A program made the translations under genes and the position numbers. Shown one piece after another: positions 2,972 through 37,107 of a DNA stretch of 64,000 nt (its first letter is position 1; the number at the start of each line of letters is the position of its first letter). Source of the stretch: Escherichia phage vB_EcoM-RPN187; the sequence record OL770074.2. One strand, written 5' to 3'. A model generated the notes under the pieces. The model was not told where the DNA came from and searched no databases. It was given only the letters and a program-made list of their open reading frames with translations.

Positions 2972-3657
2972 TACCAGCCTTCCATAGGGAATTCCAGATA
3001 AACTTGGGCGTTGACACGAATTTCATTGGTAATCTTTTTAAATCGGTCTGTATTACGAGATACACGTCCGAACCAACGCCATCCATTACTAATTGCACGA
3101 GAACCAGTGTGCCATGTTTGCCAATCAAACTGAAGAAGAGTACGATCTGGAGCTTCCCATTTCTCTAGTTCACCTTTTTCAATTTTTTCGAGGACTTCTT
3201 TGTGCCACTGGCGATAGATAAGTTCGCCATCAGGAATCTGACTGAACTCTGCAGTTCCTGTTGCAAAATGAGTAGGACACACATCAGCGTTAACAAGACC
3301 AAGAATATGTTCAGAATGGTAACGAGGGTTATCATAATCAGGTTGTCCTGCAGTAATAAAGTGTTGACCAACTGGAATATCAGGGCGTGGTACATCATCA
3401 TGGTGATATCCAGGAATAGCAGGATACCAACCAGGCATCAGCATGTGAACTCGTGAATCAAATACTACATCCGAGTCTTTCCAATCATCAGGAAGATTTT
3501 GGATAAAGCTACGAGTAATTGGGCCACCATTATCAAAAGCAAAATTCAAATCGCAGTTAAAGAACATAGGCTCGTTTTTAATCTGGTTGTTTTTAATCTC
3601 ATGAGCAAAACCACCTACTGCACGAGCTTGGCTATTAAACACTTTAGAACTATTCAT
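2971..3657 (-). CDS. hypothetical protein (HHDD motif; possible metal-dependent enzyme)
   Basis: ORF track 228 aa; ATG verified 3657-3655. Contains PGYHHDD and later His residues (YHSEH, WHTGSR). Fold not assignable by eye. Confidence 0.5.
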   Translation of the reverse strand: MNSSKVFNSQARAVGGFAHEIKNNQIKNEPMFFNCDLNFAFDNGGPITRSFIQNLPDDWKDSDVVFDSRVHMLMPGWYPAIPGYHHDDVPRPDIPVGQHFITAGQPDYDNPRYHSEHILGLVNADVCPTHFATGTAEFSQIPDGELIYRQWHKEVLEKIEKGELEKWEAPDRTLLQFDWQTWHTGSRAISNGWRWFGRVSRNTDRFKKITNEIRVNAQVYLEFPMEGW

Positions 3658-25155: not shown

Positions 25156-25163
25156 TATAAATA
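25156..25163 (+). promoter_or_regulatory. late promoter TATAAATA for gene 9
   Basis: Exact TATAAATA 33 nt upstream of the gene 9 ATG. Confidence 0.55.
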
Positions 25164-25195
25164 GAATATAATATCGGACAACAAAAGGCAGAATT

Positions 25196-26068
25196 ATGGC
25201 ATTTTTTAAGCAAACTCCTAAACAATTAATCGATACCGGCGAAATTGGTAATGCCTCAACAGGTGATATCTTATTCGACGGTGGTAATAAAATAAATGAC
25301 GATATCAACGCTATTTACAATGCATTTGGCGATCAACGTAAAATGGCCGTAGCAGATGGAACCGGACCTACAGGTCAAACTATTCATGCCACAGGCTATT
25401 ATCAAAAAGGAAAGGCTGTCGATTATCAAACTCCTATTAAACCAGGCACAATGCATGATATTGATGCTTCTGATGGTGGTGTGATTGTTATTATTGACCG
25501 TCCTGAATTAGGTGACTCTGTAGAATTCATAAACTCTAATGGGTCTATTTCTGTTAACAATCCTTTAAGTATCCAAGTAACCGATGGTTCAATTAAAGGT
25601 GTTCTTAATAATCTTGTTATTTCCACCCCTTATACACATGTTGTTCTTCGTTGTATTGAAATTAATGGGCCAACTTCAGTATGGAATTATTCTACTGATA
25701 GCATGTTTGGACAGAAAGAATCTCCTGTCGATGGGACTTGGAGTCTTACAGGAAACACAGTTTCTATTCCTCTGTTTTATCGCACAGATTATAACATGGC
25801 TAAATTGCTTGTTACATGTCAATCCGCCGACGGTAGAAAAATAAAAACATGCGAAATAAATATTCTAATAGATACAATTAACTCAGAAGTTCTTTCTACC
25901 GAATTTGCAGTAATGCGAGTTGGTAATGTAGATGAAACCGACGAGATTGCTAATATTAGCTTTAGTATTATTAACAACTTTGTTACTATGACGATTACAT
26001 CTGATATTATTGGATTACGTTCAGCAGTTAAAATTATCTCAACTCAGAAAATTGGGGTCGCTCAATAA
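25196..26068 (+). CDS. 9: baseplate wedge, long-tail-fibre socket protein gp9
   Basis: 290 aa (T4 288); synteny. Confidence 0.9.
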   Translation: MAFFKQTPKQLIDTGEIGNASTGDILFDGGNKINDDINAIYNAFGDQRKMAVADGTGPTGQTIHATGYYQKGKAVDYQTPIKPGTMHDIDASDGGVIVIIDRPELGDSVEFINSNGSISVNNPLSIQVTDGSIKGVLNNLVISTPYTHVVLRCIEINGPTSVWNYSTDSMFGQKESPVDGTWSLTGNTVSIPLFYRTDYNMAKLLVTCQSADGRKIKTCEINILIDTINSEVLSTEFAVMRVGNVDETDEIANISFSIINNFVTMTITSDIIGLRSAVKIISTQKIGVAQ

Positions 26069-27873
26069 TGAAACAAAATATTAAAATTGGTAACGTCGTT
26101 GATGACGGACAAGGCGATTACCTTCGTCGAGGTGGTGAAAAAATAAATGAGAACTTTGACGAAATCTATTATGAATTAGGTGATGGTGAAGTTCCTTATT
26201 CCGCTGGCGCATGGAAGACTTATGATGCGGCTGATGGTCTTAATCTTAATGCCGCTTGGGGTAAATCTTATGCAATTAATACTACTTCTGGGCGAGTTTC
26301 GGTAAATCTTCCTAAAGGGACAATTGCAGACTATAATAAAGTTATTCGTGCTCGTGACGTATTTGCAACTTGGAACATTAACCCTGTTACTTTAATTCCG
26401 GCAAACGGAGACACGATTAAAGGTTCTTCATCTCCGGTAGAAATTAACGTTCAGTTCTCTGATTTAGAATTAGTTTATTGTGCTCCTGGACGTTGGGAAT
26501 ACATCAAGAACAAACAAATTGATAAAATAGTTAGCTCTGACATTAGTAATGTTGCTCGTAGAGAATATCTGGTTGAAACCCAAGGTCAGACCGATTTCGT
26601 GGATGTTTTTAACGGGACCTCTTATAACGTTAATAACATTCGCGTAAAACATCGTGGCAACGAATTGTATTATGGTGATGTATTCAGTGATAATAGTGAT
26701 TTTGGTTCTCCAGGCGCTAATCCTGGTGAACTGGTTGCACTTGATGGATTTAATATTAGATTACGCCAACCATGTAATGTTGGCGACACTGTACAAATTG
26801 AGACATTCTTAGATGGTGTTTCTCAGTGGCGCAGTTCATATACTCGTCGCCAAGTTCGCATTTTAGATAGTAAATTGACCGCTAAAAAGTCTATTGATGG
26901 AAGTATTTACGTCACTGATTTGAGTACGTTCCGGTCTATTCCATTTACAGCATTTGGTATTAATCCTACGGAACCACCTAACCCGAATTCGTTAGAAGTT
27001 CGCTTCAATGGTATTCTCCAAGAATTAGCTGGTACTGTTGGAACTCCTATTTTCCGTTGTGAAGGTGTGGATGCTGATTCTGAAGAGACATGCGCTAATC
27101 TCGGTGGGACATGGACTCAATCATATACAGATTATGCGATTGAATATACTGATAATATCCCTAGCGCAATTTTGTTTGACCGTCAATTTGAAGACCAAGA
27201 CATTATTACCATCACATGGTTTAATAACGATTTAGGAACTCTTCTTGAAATGGAAGAAATCCTTGATGTCGCTGATGAGAAATATGTTTCTCAAGGGTCT
27301 AACATTGAAATTACTGGTGACGTTGCATTAACCGATTTCGATAAAATTGGATGGCCTAATGTAGAACCTGTTCCTAAGTATGAACGTGAATTCTCGACTA
27401 TCTCAGCAATATTTGATACAATTTATCCTGTCGGGACTATTTACGAAAATGCGGTTAACCCTAATAATCCGGCAACTTATTTAGGTTTTGGTTCGTGGAA
27501 AATTTGGGGACAAGGCAAAGTATTAGCAGGTTGGAATGATGACGCGTCAGATCCTAATTTTGCATTAAATAATAATGACCTTGACGTCAATGGTAACCCT
27601 ACTCATACCGCAGGTGGGACCGTTGGTGTAACAACCATCACATTAGAAAATGCTGATTTACCAGCTACACAAACCGATGAAAAGGTTCTTATTTCTGATG
27701 ATAATGGTACAGTAATTATAGGCGGTTGCCAATATGACCCAGATGAAGAAGGTCCTATTTACACTAAATATCGTGAAGACCATGCAAAGACTAATGGATC
27801 TCATGTTCCAGCGCGTTCTATAACTAATATTCAGCCATCTATAACTGTATACCGTTGGGTAAGGATTGCATAA
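26068..27873 (+). CDS. 10: baseplate wedge and tail-pin protein gp10
   Basis: 601 aa (T4 602); synteny. Confidence 0.9.
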
Positions 27874-28532
27874 TGACTGTACTTAATACAAAGGCGGGAG
27901 TTATTTCCCGTCATGCTGATTTTTTGAATTACAGAAAAAATCCAGCTCAAATTGATGTTTTAAACAACCAAGCTGTAGGTTCCGTGACTATTTCTCAGTT
28001 AGCTCGCGGTTTTTATGATGCCAACGTAGAATCTGCAATAAATGATGTCCATAATATGGCACGAGCTGATATTGGTACTGTTGTCACAAACACTTCAGGC
28101 GTATCGCCTGAAGGTGCAGCACAAGTTGATTATTGGACTTTTTCCGGTGATGTTCTCGACGATACTTTGGACACTGGAACGCCAGTCGTTATTAACGTAT
28201 TTGGACTTGCCGTTAAAGCAACAATCGGTATGACTGATAACGAATTAACGGCACAAGTTCGTATAGCTTTACAAGAAGCCATTGCTAATCAAATCGCTAT
28301 TTCTTCTTATAAAGACCATCCGTCCGAAGGTAATAAACTTCAGGTGACATATTTAGATAACCAACGTCATGTGTTGCCAACATATGCTTCGTTTGGTGTA
28401 ACAATTTCGCAAGAAATTTTGTCTGAAGCAAAATCCGGATACGGAACATGGAATTTATTGGGTGCCCAAACGGTTACTCTTGATAACCATAGCACTCCTA
28501 CCGTTTTCTACCACTTTGTGAGAGCCTCATGA
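27873..28532 (+). CDS. 11: baseplate wedge and tail-pin protein gp11
   Basis: ATG at 27873 overlaps gp10 stop; 219 aa as T4 gp11; ORF track starts at upstream TTG. Confidence 0.9.
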
Positions 28533-30112
28533 GTAATAACAATACATACCAACACGTTTCAAACAAATCCATTTACGTTGAATTCGACCCCGTAGGGTCG
28601 AATTTTCCAGATACAGTCACTAATGTCCAAGCCGCATTAGCTGCTATTTCTCCTTCAGGTGTTAATGGCGTACCGGAAGCAACAACTACTACACCAGGAA
28701 TTATTCAAATAGCTACTCCACAAGAAGTTATTGATGGATTAGATAATAGTAAAGCTGTTACTCCGGCAACACTGAATGCTCGTCTACAATATCCTAATGC
28801 AACCGAAACTCAATACGGCTTAACTCGTTATGCTACTGAAGATGAAGCAGTAACCGGAGCTATTGACGATGCATCAATTACTCCGCTTAAATTGAATCAA
28901 AAAATAGACAATGTATTTCAGACAAAAGTGTCAACAGAAGCAACAAATGGTGTAATTAAAATTTCAACTTCTGCCGCGGCATTAGCTGGTTCTGACGATA
29001 CAACGGCAATGACTCCGTTAAAAACGCAACAATTAGCAATTAAACTTATTTCGCAAATTGCTCCAAATAATAGTGACGCCACCGAATCTATTACAGGTGT
29101 TGTTCGTTTGGCTACAGTTGCTCAAGCACAGCAAGGCACCCTGCGTGAAGGATATGCAATTTCACCTTATACCTTTATGAATTCAGTAGCGTCAGAAACT
29201 AATAAAGGTGTCGTTAAACTAGGGACACAGACTGAAGTAAATAGTAACAACTCTTCAGTTGTAGTGACCGGTGCAACATTAAACGGGCGTGGGGCTACAA
29301 CTTCTTTACGTGGAGTTGTTCGTTTAACTACACAAGCTGGTAGTCAATCAGGTGGTGATGGTTCTTCTGCCCTTGCTTGGAATGCTGATGTTATCCACCA
29401 ACGAGGTGGACAAACTATTAACGGCACGCTTCGCATTAATAATACGTTGACGGTTGGTTCTGGTGGAGCTAATATAACTGGTAATGTCAATATGACAGGT
29501 GGTTATATTCAAGGCAATCGTATTGTGACTCAAAATGAATTAGACCGAATTCTTCCAGTTGGCGCTATTACAATGTGGGCTGCGGATAGTTTACCGAGTT
29601 CTGACTGGCGCTTCTGTCACGGTGGGACTGTTTCTGCTTCAGAATGTCCGGTATATGCTTCCAGAATTGGGACACGATATGGTGGTAGTTCTTCTAACCC
29701 GGGCTTGCCTGATATGCGTGGATTATTTGTTCGCGGCTCAGGTCGTGGTACCCATTTAACTAACCCTAATGTTAATGGTAATGACCAATTCGGTAAGCCT
29801 CGTCTGGCGGTAGGTTGTACCGGTGGATATGTTGGTGAAGTGCAAAAACAACAGATGTCATATCATAAGCATGCTGGTGGTTTTGGCGAGCATGACGATT
29901 CCGGTGCATTTGGTAATACTCGTCGTTCAAACTTTGTTGGTACTCGTAAAGGACTTGACTGGGATAACCGTTCGTATTTTACTAACGAGGGATATGAAAT
30001 TGATCCAGCGTCTCAGCGTAACTCTAAATATACCATGAATCGTCCAGAATTAATTGGAAATGAAACTCGCCCATGGAATATTTCTTTAAACTATATCATT
30101 AAGGTAAAATAA
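28529..30112 (+). CDS. 12: short tail fibre protein gp12
   Basis: 527 aa as T4 gp12; repetitive beta-rich sequence. Confidence 0.9.
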
Positions 30113-31560
30113 TGACTGATATAACTCTGGTAGATTTACCATATGTTGACGGCCCACCAGACGCGGGTCAGAGTCGTATTGAATGGATTAAAAACGATGA
30201 AGAAATAACAGGTGCTGACACAAAATACGGTTCTGAAGGTGTAATGAACCGTCCTATTGTTGAAGTTCAACGTAACGTAGAAGCGTTAGATGTTAATATT
30301 AAAACTATAGCATCTTCTCTGAATACAGCCAATGAAGATATCAAAGTTATTCAAGGTATTTTAGATGTTTCTGGGGATGTTGATGCTCTTGCACAGATAG
30401 GCCAGAACACCCAAGATATCGATGTCATTAAAGTCACAGTTCAAACCCATGCTAGTGAATTGAATGATTTGAATGAACATATTGATGCGAATACTGATGA
30501 TATTGGTGTTTATAATCAGGAAACAGATTCAGTTTATAGAACTGTTCGTAACGACCTGCTTTGGATTAAAAATGAATTAGGACAATATACGGGTCAAGAT
30601 ATTAACGGGGTTCCTACTCCAGGAAATGATAGCACCGGTATGAAACGCCGTATTATGACTAATAGCTCCGTGATTGTTGACCACGGTGTTCGATTAACTG
30701 ATTTAGAAACTAAATTTGCTGATTCTGACGTCGGCTCTTTAACTAATGAAGTCGAACACTTACGCGAAGAAATGGGACCTCGCACTTCTTTCACTACTCC
30801 AGTATTTAGTCGTCTTTCCGGTATTGATTTAACTTTGTCGCGTCAAAATGCTGACTTGGATGGCATTAAACAGTCTATTGGGTATCCTAATACGACTTCT
30901 ATTATTACCACAACTAATGCGAATAGTTCAGCAATAAATGACATTAATCTTGAGCTCAATCAATCGGGCGGTATTAAACCTCGTTTGACTACAGTAGAAA
31001 CTGCCATTGGCTCTGATGATTTGCCTACTACAATCCAAGGACGTATTAAACTCAATACTGATGCTATCGGAGCATTGAACACTGTTGTCGGCTCTGATTC
31101 TTCGTCAGGATTGCGTTTTAATGTGTCATGGTTAAATAACGTAGTTGGTGTTGACGCTTCAGGTGGGAAACCGGAACCAGACGGCTCTTTGCTTTATCGT
31201 ACTCGAGTGCTTGAAGGATCTATCAGTGAGATGAGTAATGACATTCAGAACGTTCAAACTGATGTTGGGACTAATACCACAGGAATTAAGGGTTCTGTAA
31301 ACACATTAAATACTCTTATAAACGGCACCAACCCAAATGGTTCGACTGTTGAAGAACGTGGTATATTGCCTACAGTTAAAAGTCATGATACGACAATTAA
31401 TGGTTTAACTTCTAGAATTGCTACTCTTGAAACTGATTTGGCCGCTGCAGAAGCTGAAATCCAAACTCTTAAGGACGCTGGATATATTGAAGATGCTCCT
31501 TCAGACGGTAAATTCTATGTTCGCAAAGACGGTGCATGGGTTGAACTTCCTACAGCTTAA
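30112..31560 (+). CDS. wac: fibritin (neck whiskers)
   Basis: 482 aa; coiled-coil segments; C-terminal foldon-like GYIEDAPSDGKFYVRKDGAWVELPTA. Confidence 0.9.
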   Translation: MTDITLVDLPYVDGPPDAGQSRIEWIKNDEEITGADTKYGSEGVMNRPIVEVQRNVEALDVNIKTIASSLNTANEDIKVIQGILDVSGDVDALAQIGQNTQDIDVIKVTVQTHASELNDLNEHIDANTDDIGVYNQETDSVYRTVRNDLLWIKNELGQYTGQDINGVPTPGNDSTGMKRRIMTNSSVIVDHGVRLTDLETKFADSDVGSLTNEVEHLREEMGPRTSFTTPVFSRLSGIDLTLSRQNADLDGIKQSIGYPNTTSIITTTNANSSAINDINLELNQSGGIKPRLTTVETAIGSDDLPTTIQGRIKLNTDAIGALNTVVGSDSSSGLRFNVSWLNNVVGVDASGGKPEPDGSLLYRTRVLEGSISEMSNDIQNVQTDVGTNTTGIKGSVNTLNTLINGTNPNGSTVEERGILPTVKSHDTTINGLTSRIATLETDLAAAEAEIQTLKDAGYIEDAPSDGKFYVRKDGAWVELPTA

Positions 31561-31592
31561 TGAAAAGGGCCTTCGGGCCCTAAAGGATTTAT

Positions 31593-32519
31593 ATGTCAGG
31601 TTATAATGCACAAAACCCTAAAGAATTAAAGGACGTAATATTACGTCGTTTAGGCGCTCCTATTGTAAATGTTGAATTAACTACAGATCAAATTTATGAT
31701 TGTATTTCACGAGCGTTAGAACTTTATGGCGAATACCATTTTGACGGGTTGAATAAAGGTTTCCATGTATTTTTTGTTGATGACGAAGAAAAATACCGTC
31801 ACGGCGTATTTGATATGCGTGGTTCTAACGTATTTGCTGTAACAAGAATTATAAGAACAAACGTTGGCTCTATTACTTCAATGGATGGTAATGCAACTTA
31901 TCCATGGTTCACTGATTTCCTTTTAGGAATGGCAGGTGTTTCAGGTGGTATGGGTAGTAATTGCGGTAAATTCTACGGCCCGAACGCTTTTGGCGCTGAT
32001 CTCGGGTATTATTCTCAATTAGTATCTTATATGGGTATGCTTCAAGATATGATTGCTCCTCTTCCAGATTTTTGGTTTAACTCTGCAAACGAGCAATTAA
32101 AAGTAATGGGTAACTTTAGACAGAAAGATGTAATTATCGTTGAATCGTATGTTCGCTCTTATATCGAGACCCATAAGATGGTAGGAAATACAGTAGGGTA
32201 CGGTCAAGTAGGTCCTCGTGATTCATGGTCTATTTCTGAACGTTATGATAATCCAGACCATAATTTGGTCGGACGTCGAGTTGGTGAAGATCCTGCAACT
32301 AAACAAGGCGCATATAACAACCGCTGGGTTAAAGATTATGCAACTGCATTAGCTAAAGAGCTTAATGGACAAATTCTTGCTAAACATCAAGGTATGATGT
32401 TACCGGGTGGCGTCACTGTTGACGGTGTTCGATTAATTGAAGAAGCTCGTTTAGAGAAAGAAGCTTTACGAGAAGAGTTATATTTACTGGACCCTCCTGC
32501 AGGTATTTTGGTAGGTTAA
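31593..32519 (+). CDS. 13: neck protein gp13
   Basis: 308 aa (T4 309); synteny. Confidence 0.9.
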
Positions 32520-32520
32520 T

Positions 32521-33156
32521 ATGGCAACATACTACAGATTGTATATTACAACATTTGAAACATCCACCGGTATAAAGATTTATGGTGGTAAACACAAATC
32601 AGTTTACGAAGACCCTTCAAAAGACCCTTATACTGGGTCTGGTACCTTTATACGAAGGGCCAAAAGAAAATACGGTCCGTCTTGTATAAAAGAAATTATA
32701 TGGTCTAAGCCATTTGAATCTAAAGCTCTAATGGATGAAGCTGAAGAGTTACTGGTAGATGAATTATCCATTTTAGAAAATTGCGCAAATCTTGTTAAAG
32801 GTGGTGCAGGCGGAAGGTCGTATATTAACCCAGAAGATAATCCATCTATAGGACAAAAACGTTCAGCCCAATCTAAAAAGAAAATGTCTGACGCCGCAAA
32901 ATCAAGAAAATGGACTGAAGAAGGGTTAAGAAAACGTAAAGAATCTACAGCAAGAATGTGGAAAGATTTCAAACATAGACATCCTGATTTTTCTGGTTCA
33001 AAGAATCCAGCAGCTCGAAAAGTTAGTGTAAATGGTAAAATATTTAACACCTGCAAAGAATGTGGTGAAGAATTTAATATCACATCAAGCGCGGTTATAG
33101 GCCGATGCAAAAACAACAAACCTAAATGGGCAGGATGGAATTATGTCGACGTATAA
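32521..33156 (+). CDS. free-standing GIY-YIG (Seg/I-TevI-like) homing endonuclease inserted between genes 13 and 14
   Basis: N-terminus [19 protein letters not shown] has GIY-(11 aa)-YIG-like spacing; Lys-rich NUMOD-like linker; C-terminus [38 protein letters not shown] resembles the I-TevI C-terminal DNA-binding domain (memory). T4 has no gene here. Confidence 0.6.
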
Positions 33157-33907
33157 TTCAAATTTATTTGCAAAGTTAGAAAACCGAGAAGGCTATTCTA
33201 AAACTAATGAAACCGAGATTTTAAACAAATACGTGAACTTTAACAAATACGAAAATAGTCAGACATTAGCCGATGTTCTAGTGGCAGAAAGCATACAGAT
33301 GCGCGGTATTGAATGTTTTTATGTTCCACGTGAATATGTTGCCGTGGACCTTATCTTTGGTGAGGACCTTAAAAATAAATTTACTAAAGCATGGAAATTT
33401 GCTGCATATCTGAACTCTTTTGAAGGTTATGAAGGAGCGAAATCGTTCTTCAGCAACTTCGGAATGCAAGTTCAAGACGAAGTTACATTATCTATTAACC
33501 CAGGTCTTTTCAAACACCAGGTCAACAATCAGGAGCCCAAGGAAGGTGATTTAATATACTTCCCAATGGATAACAGTTTGTTTGAGATTAACTGGGTTGA
33601 ACCATATGACCCATTCTATCAAGTAGGTAAAAATGCGATTCGTAAAATTACTGCAGGCAAGTTTATTTACTCTGGCGAAGAAATCAATCCGGTGCTTCAG
33701 AAAAATGAAGGTATCAATATACCTGAATTTAGTGACTTGGAACTTAACCCTGTTAGAAATCTTGACGGTATCCATGACATTAATATCGATGAATATTCTG
33801 AAGTTGAGCAAATCAATTCAGAGGCAAGTGAATACGTTGAGCCGTATGTAGTAGTTAACAACCGTGGTAGACAAAATTCACCATTTGACGATGGGTTTAT
33901 GAATTAA
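33143..33907 (+). CDS. 14: neck protein gp14
   Basis: 254 aa (T4 256); overlaps the 3' end of the endonuclease gene by 14 nt. Confidence 0.9.
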
Positions 33908-33956
33908 TAAATAGATAAGATAAAGCAAACACCGGTCGAAAGGCCGGTTAGGAGAA

Positions 33957-34781
33957 ATGATGTTTGGTTATTTTTACAACTCGTCGTTCAGGCGATATAT
34001 CACAATGATGGGCGATTTGTTTTCAAATATCCAAGTTAACCGTCAATTGTCTACAGGCAATAAATTAATTAGAGTTCCTATTACGTATGCATCTAAAGAG
34101 CACTTTATGATGAAACTTAATAAATGGACCTCTATAAACTCACAAGAAGATGTGGCTAAAGTCGAAACTATTCTACCACGTATAAATCTCCAAATGGTAG
34201 ATTTCGTTTATAACCCAACGTTTAAAACGAATATATTGAATAACTCTCTTTTGAGTAAATCGACTAAGGATATTGTAGACCAATACAACCCATCACCAAT
34301 TAAAATGATTTTTGAACTGAGCATCTTTACTCGTTATGAAGATGATATGTTCCAAATCGTTGAGCAAATTATTCCATATTTTCAGCCGCATTTTAATACG
34401 ACTATGATTGAGCAATATGGGCAGGATATTCCATTTGAAAGGGATATTAAAGTCGTATGGATGTCAGCAGCAATGGATGAACAAATAGACGGTGATAATT
34501 TATCCCGTCGACGTTTAGAGTGGTCATTAACATTTGAAGTAAATGGATGGATGTATCCTCCGGTAGGCGCAGCAGAAGGCCTTATTAAAACGACTTATCT
34601 TGATTTTCATGCTAATGAACGAGACCTTCAAACAGCCGCCAGCGTTTTTGAATCAGTTGATACAGAAATTAAACCGAGAGAAGTTGAAGCACAAGATTGG
34701 AATGGCGAAGTTGAACAAACTTATACTCATGATATTCCAATCCCGACTCCACCAACCCCTCCTGGTCCTAGAAAACAATAA
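33957..34781 (+). CDS. 15: tail sheath stabiliser/completion protein gp15
   Basis: M-MFGYFYNSSFRRY...ITYASKEHFMMKLNKWTSINSQEDVAKVETILPRINL matches T4 gp15 (memory). Confidence 0.9.
   Translation: MMFGYFYNSSFRRYITMMGDLFSNIQVNRQLSTGNKLIRVPITYASKEHFMMKLNKWTSINSQEDVAKVETILPRINLQMVDFVYNPTFKTNILNNSLLSKSTKDIVDQYNPSPIKMIFELSIFTRYEDDMFQIVEQIIPYFQPHFNTTMIEQYGQDIPFERDIKVVWMSAAMDEQIDGDNLSRRRLEWSLTFEVNGWMYPPVGAAEGLIKTTYLDFHANERDLQTAASVFESVDTEIKPREVEAQDWNGEVEQTYTHDIPIPTPPTPPGPRKQ

Positions 34782-37107
<2,326 letters not shown>

Follow-up and report, generated by a model that had tools for sequence, protein, structure and literature searches.

The DNA analyzed here, a 64,000-nt stretch of Escherichia phage vB_EcoM-RPN187 (OL770074.2; hereafter the window, whose positions are used throughout), contains between the neck genes 13 and 14 an open reading frame (ORF) of 211 residues that starts with ATG and spans 32521..33156 on the + strand. 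We propose that this ORF, hereafter seg, is probably a functional free-standing homing endonuclease gene of the T4 Seg family, the product of which targets the uninterrupted 13/14 junction together with the 5' end of gene 14. A first-pass annotation made from the letters alone had described it as a free-standing Seg-like GIY-YIG homing endonuclease gene, and the homology to Seg proteins, the predicted fold and the optional presence of the gene all support this description. The ORF coordinates also agree with the recorded position between genes 13 and 14 and with a 14-nt overlap with gene 14 (33143-33156), and in T4 the site indeed holds no gene, with the last base of gene 13 at 94553 and the first of gene 14 at 94555.

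Homology searches assigned the seg product to the Seg family. It matches PHROG 314 'homing endonuclease' with an E-value of 2.6e-37, and a profile search against 1.84 billion representative proteins retrieved 7100 relatives. Among the T4 Seg proteins, phmmer gave the highest score to SegF (42.6 bits), followed by SegC (36.7), SegD (34.7), SegB (33.9), SegA (30.5) and SegE (26.4); SegF is also the best T4 match in BLASTP, with 37% identity over 97 aa (residues 4-98) and an E-value of 2e-14. The Seg-type GIY-YIG nuclease domain occupies residues 1-98 (32521..32814, + strand). Alignment against SegA-F using MAFFT revealed the Seg signature of Y8, Y21-G22-G23, H25, D35-x-Y37-x-G39-S40-G41, K50-Y51-G52, E75, N90 and G94-G95-x-G97-G98, in which R6-L7-Y8 and Y21-G22-G23 are the equivalents of the 'GIY' and 'YIG' motifs. 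The two tyrosines are 13 positions apart, compared to 11 in I-TevI, with an extended hairpin as in SegF. Across 43 distant relatives, Y8, Y21, G23, Y37, G39, G41 and E75 never vary, and N90 is at least 90% conserved. Both E75 and N90 are in register with E75 and N90 of I-TevI in the hhalign and MAFFT alignments; the hhalign comparison of the 43-sequence profile with the single I-TevI sequence has a negligible probability of 0.56 and was used for alignment only, not as evidence of homology.

Following the nuclease domain, a basic linker with NUMOD3-like helices (residues ~105-150, 32833..32970, + strand) has predicted helices at 116-128 and 133-149. The NUMOD3 match covers residues 105-123 with 16.9 bits, below the cutoff of 20.4, and 11 of 12 close homologues match at E <=1, the best at 3.9e-4. 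The C-terminal part (residues ~159-208, 32995..33144, + strand) is predicted to form an I-TevI-type helix-turn-helix DNA-binding domain. Residues 159-204 match PF20987 I-TevI_DNA-bd with 22.6 bits against a cutoff of 27, and again 11 of the 12 close homologues match at E <=1, with a best E-value of 1.6e-10. Moreover, the A1 profile matches residues 185-242 of I-TevI (24.5 bits), and NCBIfam TIGR01453 'group I intron endonuclease' matches the C-terminal part with 27.1 bits, under its cutoff of 56.05. The zinc finger PF22635 gave no match in any of 12 family members, compared to 73 bits for the I-TevI control, and C181 is the only invariant cysteine in the C-terminal half.

The AlphaFold2 model has a mean pLDDT of 82.9, with ~90 for the nuclease domain and a disordered hinge at residues 93-99. 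In this model the nuclease domain follows the order beta-beta-alpha-beta-alpha, forming a three-stranded sheet with flanking helices. A Foldseek search with the whole model returned the I-TevI DNA-binding domain (1i3j_A) as the best match, with a probability of 1.00. Overall, the architecture is a SegF-like GIY-YIG domain, a basic NUMOD3-like linker and an I-TevI-type helix-turn-helix, with no zinc finger. The three features that had been read from the letters at the outset are thus borne out: the GIY-YIG-like spacing at the N-terminus corresponds to Y8...Y21-G-G with E75 and N90, the Lys-rich linker is a Lys/Arg-rich segment with a weak NUMOD3 match, and the likeness of the C-terminus to the I-TevI DNA-binding domain is seen in both the sub-threshold PF20987 match and the Foldseek match to 1i3j.

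A megablast search of 31593-33907 against 50,697 phage records yielded 204 matching records, 148 of which are at least 95% identical; those inspected belong to Mosigvirus (Straboviridae, Tevenvirinae), with the exception of phage F2. The whole query is covered in only 12 records, at 98.1-99.4% identity, and the encoded seg proteins share 99-100% identity. The insert is therefore present in 12 of ~148 records (~8%), leaving ~92% without it. Inspection of the junction in insert-free relatives, a check suggested with the initial annotation, found it clean: in the loci read, genes 13 and 14 abut as TAA-T-ATG, as in T4. As most close relatives have such a clean junction, seg is an optional gene outside the conserved neck module. 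Annotations in the 12 records read 'homing endonuclease', 'putative endonuclease', 'intron-associated endonuclease' or 'hypothetical protein', mostly an endonuclease. Phage F2 (locus L011, MN864145 / NC_054913) is filed under Tequatrovirus by NCBI, and its wac-13-seg-14-16 segment is 99% identical to the window, so that F2 is either misclassified or mosaic.

Alignment with insert-free Mosigvirus loci defined an insertion of 622 bp (32521..33142, + strand), represented by 622 gap columns and by record spans of 1693 vs 2315 bases. Its placement is ambiguous by ~11 nt: ATGGCAAC-TA is present at both edges. The insert-free loci are identical to the window up to 32528. The empty junction reads ...GGTAGGTTAA-T-ATGGCAACTTATGATAAAAATC... 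(gene 14 MATYDKNLF...), and that of the window reads ...GGTAGGTTAA-T-ATGGCAAC followed by ATACTACAGA... (seg MATYYRLY...). In other words, the insert-free gene 14 opens with ATGGCAACTTATGAT (MATYD) and the seg ORF with ATGGCAACATACTAC (MATYY), such that ATGGCAACATA (32521..32531, + strand), the former gene 14 start codon plus its first three codons (M-A-T), is now the start of seg. This junction alignment indicates that seg sits on the old gene 14 start codon, keeping the ribosome site and three codons. The ribosome-binding region at the end of gene 13 consists of GGTAGG (32510-32515) and the gene 13 stop codon TAA (32517-32519) on the + strand; it formerly served gene 14 and now serves seg, which begins one base after the stop.

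Gene 14 restarts 622 nt downstream as ATGTCGACGTATAATTCAAAT (MSTYNSNLF...). Its new translation-initiation region (33130..33145, + strand) lies within the last seg codons, GCAGGATGGAATTATG, and comprises AGGA at 33132-33135, a spacer of 7 nt and the ATG at 33143. The C-terminal end of seg, ...A-G-W-N-Y-V-D-V-stop, thus holds both the Shine-Dalgarno sequence and the ATG of gene 14, and a D5N change in gene 14 creates the seg stop codon. The 5' end of gene 14 is recoded over 51 nt (33143..33193, + strand), with 14 fixed and two nearly fixed differences from insert-free Mosigvirus (~30%). The position assigned by the first-pass annotation, wedged between genes 13 and 14, is correct but needs refinement: seg starts on the old gene 14 ATG itself, and the first ~50 nt of gene 14 are replaced.

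An RNA hairpin over the gene 14 AUG (33138-33159) was considered and rejected, as its z of -0.44 is no better than that of shuffled sequences; the corresponding hairpins in SP18, VR26, L009 and Phi1 are not above shuffles either. In MX01 (L023, ~2100-2150) and 005 (L008, ~3100-3150), the Shine-Dalgarno sequence and AUG of gene 14 lie inside a hairpin of -15.5 kcal/mol with z ~-3. This hairpin could couple the translation of gene 14 to that of seg in Dhakavirus.

We compared 5.3 kb around the site among seven insert-bearing and seven insert-free Mosigvirus loci. Fixed differences between the two groups are confined to the junction and gene 14 nt 4-48, and none was found in gene 13. At >=98% identity, no records other than the 12 with the insert contain the 54-nt recoded tract; below these rank partial matches of ~85% in gene 14 of T4-like phages of Klebsiella and Edwardsiella. 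Over 51 nt, the tract shares 39 positions (76%) with Edwardsiella phage PEi20 and 35 (69%) with the Mosigvirus allele. Such between-genus divergence would fit an origin of the tract in another genus. We identified no donor of the cassette; the closest protein homologue is 63% identical.

Past the recoded tract, some of the insert-free phages have the same sequence as the insert-bearing ones. The mean allele-frequency difference between the groups is about 0 (-0.05) in the last 220 nt of gene 13 (32301-32520), 0.81 at 33160-33193, 0.53 at 33194-33260 and 0.34 at 33261-33400, and ~0 past 33400. Linkage to the insert is therefore found on the gene 14 side only and fades over ~250 bp; we read the zone of decaying linkage (33194..33400, + strand) as a co-conversion gradient. 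At >=90% identity, the window-type haplotype of 33197-33300 is shared by ~33 records, some of them insert-free.

A second diverged patch in gene 14 (33197-33260, nt 55-118) has ~20 differences in 55 nt. Its window-type haplotype is present in all seven insert-bearing and three of the seven insert-free loci, the others being T4-like. This patch may be an older co-conversion tract partly uncoupled from seg.

Nucleotide diversity (pi) among the insert-bearing phages is 0.005 in the cassette, 0.020 in gene 13 and 0.013 in the rest of gene 14. In wac and gene 13 these phages are interspersed with insert-free ones, resembling one another no more than they resemble the latter, and several have an insert-free nearest neighbor. 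The variable codons of the cassette comprise nine synonymous vs two non-synonymous changes. The dN/dS ratio is 0.05 between SP18 and VR26 and ~0.16-0.21 for inter-genus pairs where dS is finite, and all copies read, seven from Mosigvirus and eight further homologues, are intact. Altogether, the low cassette diversity on mixed backbones, the purifying selection and the linkage point to a functional gene that recently spread over Mosigvirus backbones together with a short piece of gene 14.

The same slot is occupied in other T4-like phages. In all eight further loci read, a homologue of 53-63% identity lies between genes 13 and 14 and overlaps gene 14; these loci are from SP18 and VR26 (Gaprivervirus), MX01 (Dhakavirus), vB_EcoM_005, the IMG/VR contig L009 and the Logan assemblies L025-L027. 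A scan of IMG/VR with the family alignment gave three loci only, and an annotated phage collection was used instead; among the top 40 tblastn matches, all those with annotation have neck genes listed at or next to the matching segment. The seg ATG takes the place of the gene 14 ATG in each lineage, and W-x-Y codons close to the C-terminal end of seg carry the new gene 14 ATG. This W-x-Y design is seen in SP18, VR26, 005, MX01, L009 and Phi1, and the 14-nt overlap is also present in L025-L027.

In Krischvirus Phi1 (NC_009821; L021 1201-1785), the gene in the 13/14 slot is named 'segC' and shares 29% overall identity with seg, with a SegB/D-like nuclease domain that scores 80.8 bits to SegB vs 13.8 to SegF. 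The GenBank name 'segC' is a misnomer at this site, as T4 segC lies between 5.1 and 5.3. Among outside matches, the C-terminus of the Phi1 protein (…KSTAEKWKEFYYV) comes closest to the C-terminal domain of the window protein; it has KSTAEKWK in common with SP18. Domain shuffling around a common DNA-binding module, or convergence from encoding the gene 14 ribosome site, could conceivably account for it. We also considered the C-terminal domain as a specific mark of all Segs in the 13/14 slot and dropped the idea: Seg proteins encoded elsewhere, such as the Klebsiella 'SegD', match over the full length at a similar ~30%, so the sharing seen in Phi1 is too weak as evidence.

Taking these loci together, the lineage might be a long-term single-site specialist at the gene 14 start codon, carrying a 'start-codon swap' cassette in which the recoded gene 14 5' end combines dual-coding overlap with target-site immunity. 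We put this forward tentatively, as a reading whose chances are slightly short of even. Its range would cover Mosigvirus, Gaprivervirus, Dhakavirus, T4-like phages of Klebsiella and from Logan assemblies, and possibly Krischvirus Phi1.

From these comparisons we infer expression, cleavage, target position, homing and marker exclusion as follows. Late in infection, seg would be translated from gene 14's own ribosome-binding site beside the gene 13 stop, and the cassette would restore a ribosome-binding site and start codon to gene 14 via its own last codons. In a mixed infection, the helix-turn-helix and linker of the protein are predicted to mediate binding to an insert-free Mosigvirus genome at the uninterrupted 13/14 junction and the 5' end of gene 14, and the protein would make a double-strand break nearby. 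The predicted target comprises the junction and gene 14 nt 1-51 of the empty allele. T4-type recombinational repair, templated by the seg-bearing genome, would then transfer seg together with the recoded start of gene 14 and a stretch, variable in length, of the gene 14 sequence that follows. The seg-bearing genome itself should be immune, with its site split by the insert and ~30% of the adjacent bases altered. Intronless homing and marker exclusion of this kind are described for SegF, SegG, SegE and SegB (PMC2988022). For seg, the low diversity of the cassette on diverse backbones and the one-sided linkage in gene 14 lend indirect, population-genetic support to cleavage and marker exclusion.

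Several points weigh against this proposal. Symmetric co-conversion predicts some linkage on the gene 13 side, though none is found among the 7+7 loci. Only ~8% of the sequenced Mosigvirus phages carry seg, which is hence not sweeping. In the literature searched, we found neither a study on a seg gene between genes 13 and 14 nor a characterization of any Seg gene in this slot. Cut sites of the T4 Seg enzymes are often hundreds of bp away from the respective genes (PMC2988022), so the target could lie outside the adjacent tract, and the recoded tract could merely be hitch-hiked donor DNA. In the protein, the arginine R27 of I-TevI has no aligned counterpart, as the segment FEKRWKRH is gapped both here and in T4 SegA-F, leaving R6, H25 and K50 as candidate substitutes; SegA, B, C, E and F, which share this deviation, are listed as active in a T4 review (PMC2988022). 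Finally, neither the protein nor 12 close homologues match PF01541 GIY-YIG at E <=1. The Pfam check proposed with the first annotation thus came out negative for GIY-YIG, which formally triggers the refutation named there, and gave only a sub-threshold match for NUMOD3. As controls, SegA, SegB and I-TevI pass PF01541, SegC, D and E reach it only sub-threshold and pass PF19835 SegE_GIY-YIG instead, and T4 SegF and SegG have no Pfam match at all. Since SegF and SegG are nevertheless active endonucleases (PMC2988022), the missing PF01541 match is uninformative for this branch; PF19835 is matched by four of the 43 distant relatives.

The alternative that survives best, although we judge it unlikely, is an active homing endonuclease that cuts further off, deeper in gene 14, in gene 13 or elsewhere, with the recoded 51 nt being imported foreign flank constrained by the overlapping frames. 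Free-standing endonucleases can cleave hundreds to thousands of bp from their genes (PMC2988022). The 16 of 51 differences between the tract and Mosigvirus are similar to the 15 of 51 between PEi20 and Mosigvirus, a between-genus pair, which fits plain import. Moreover, the 14-nt overlap, which codes in two frames, dictates some of the recoding (D5N, codons 1-5), and the linkage reaches ~250 bp into gene 14. By contrast, the fixed differences end sharply at gene 14 nt 48, the association between tract and insert is perfect in 12 of 12 records, and the 5.3 kb compared has no second fixed diverged patch. In addition, the closest DNA-binding domain is that of I-TevI, a protein that binds at its own insertion site, which also counts against a distant cut.

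We consider it rather improbable that seg is an immobile resident, catalytically dead or acting only in DNA binding or regulation, which is kept since the gene 14 start signals lie inside it. The gene 14 initiation region is indeed embedded in the last seg codons in every lineage, analogous embedded promoters favor retention, and I-TevI is an autorepressor (PMC2988022); the lack of an alignable canonical arginine and of a Pfam GIY-YIG match, as well as the low frequency in Mosigvirus, would also fit. However, purifying selection extends across the ORF including the nuclease domain (dN/dS 0.05-0.2; nine vs two changes), and the GIY-YIG signature residues remain invariant in the 43 distant relatives. 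The cassette is also four-fold less diverse than gene 13 on unrelated backbones, which suggests recent horizontal spread, and the truncated copies expected of a retained dead gene are absent from the seven Mosigvirus and eight further copies read. That the ORF is instead a conserved neck structural or assembly gene, or spurious, is hardly credible: its place in the neck operon would have it co-expressed with genes 13 and 14, but it is absent from T4 and ~92% of Mosigvirus, where these genes are intact and abutting, it has the homology and fold of Seg/I-TevI nucleases with strong family support, and a chance ORF is ruled out by the PHROG 314 match, 12 near-identical copies, many homologues of 53-63% identity and the 7100 profile relatives.

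Among the known systems, SegF has the closest nuclease domain in T4, the pattern FYR-Y...Y-G-K-H-x-S...D-x-Y-x-G-S-G...KYG...WSK...E...C-x-N...GG-x-GG being present in both. SegF is likewise a promoterless cassette in an existing transcription unit, and shares the missing PF01541 match. It lies between genes 56 and soc and causes localized marker exclusion, the behavior that we propose here (Belle et al. 2002 via PMC2988022). They differ in the slot, the target gene and the C-terminal halves, which are unrelated (<=21 bits), and SegF has been characterized experimentally; SegF is a GIY-YIG/HNH-type hybrid (PMC2988022), whereas the window protein has an I-TevI-type helix-turn-helix. Compared to I-TevI of the T4 td intron, seg encodes the same order of GIY-YIG domain, basic NUMOD3 linker and C-terminal helix-turn-helix, and I-TevI is the best structural match for both domains (PDB 1ln0/1mk0 and 1i3j), with a marginal sequence similarity (PDB phmmer E 0.12). 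However, I-TevI is intron-encoded and has a zinc finger, whereas seg is free-standing and without one; the R27 helix is also lacking in the window protein, as in T4 SegA-F.

The genes named 'segC' or 'homing endonuclease' at the 13/14 site of SP18, VR26, MX01, phT4A, Klebsiella phages and Phi1 share the slot and the 3' overlap with gene 14. They are full-length homologues of 53-63% identity, except for that of Phi1, and are not orthologues of T4 segC. As in T4 SegG and other seg/mob genes, where the endonuclease gene harbors essential expression signals for the host gene downstream and is thereby more likely to be retained (PMC2988022), the window seg carries signals for gene 14. In the T4 genes these embedded signals are promoters, for example that of gene 32, whereas here they are a ribosome-binding site and the gene 14 start codon; unlike the T4 genes, seg additionally captures the original start codon of its host gene. 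Free-standing Seg endonucleases, intronless homing, co-conversion and embedded host signals are known already, and the gene is labelled 'homing endonuclease' in GenBank. The start-codon swap and the conservation of the slot across genera extend the known themes of embedded host signals and conserved-sequence targeting, and do not break with them.

If active, the enzyme would bias the inheritance of neck alleles in mixed Mosigvirus infections and add to the mosaicism of wac, 13 and 14, which is relevant to the design of phage cocktails and to the reading of recombination breakpoints in T4-like genomes. The system also offers a predicted junction target of 50-60 bp, with natural sensitive and recoded alleles, for a SegF-type nuclease with an I-TevI-type DNA-binding domain. 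If the lineage is indeed a single-site specialist, it would provide a compact natural model of how homing genes invade coupled essential late operons without polar damage, and would show how an embedded translation signal makes such genes hard to lose.

The cassette is promoterless. The T4 late promoter TATAAATA has no match on the + strand over 25156-37100, none of the one-mismatch matches near the ORF is positioned to serve seg, and a scan for sigma-70 promoters remained at chance level. The expression of seg would thus depend on the late transcript of the neck operon, that is, the wac-13-14-15 transcription unit. T4 segC, segF, segG and four mob genes are promoterless cassettes as well (PMC2988022). 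In the whole 64-kb window, TATAAATA motifs are enriched, with 20 observed vs 8.0 expected.

The two flanking genes would serve as homology arms. On the left, neck gene 13 (31593..32519, + strand) encodes 308 residues assigned to PHROG 211 head-tail adaptor Ad2, and its product shares 85% identity with T4 gp13. On the right, neck gene 14 (33143..33907, + strand) encodes 254 residues that match PF11649 T4_neck-protein (2e-127), and is followed by the gene for gp15 (PF16724 match). A tblastn search using T4 SegA-G, MobB-E and I-TevI/II/III as queries found seg to be the sole Seg/Mob homologue in the window. Further upstream, wac, encoding fibritin (30112-31560), is highly mosaic, with pi of ~0.10 and pairwise divergence of up to 0.29 in Mosigvirus genomes that are otherwise 97-99% identical; its alternative alleles are common to insert-bearing and insert-free phages.

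Two of the other loci showed peculiarities of their own. In vB_EcoM_005 (L008, IMGVR_UViG_2974741249_000001; 2313-2509), 50 nt from the 3' end of gene 13 (GAATTAGATTTACTCGACC...GGATAATTATG) are present in duplicate upstream of seg, with one copy at 2313 and the other at 2460. Between them lies a relic of the native 5' end of gene 14, 97 nt in length; MX01, which has a near-identical seg locus, contains a single copy of the repeat. This duplication looks like a scar of imprecise homing or recombination, or an assembly artefact, and the 005 record also has frame breaks in genes 13 and 14. In SP18 (L003, GQ981382), the deposited gp14 coding sequence starts at 3231, whereas the homology to gp14 already sets in at 3138, and at 3129 there is an ATG that overlaps with the end of seg, as in all other lineages; the true start thus probably lies ~100 nt upstream of the annotated one.

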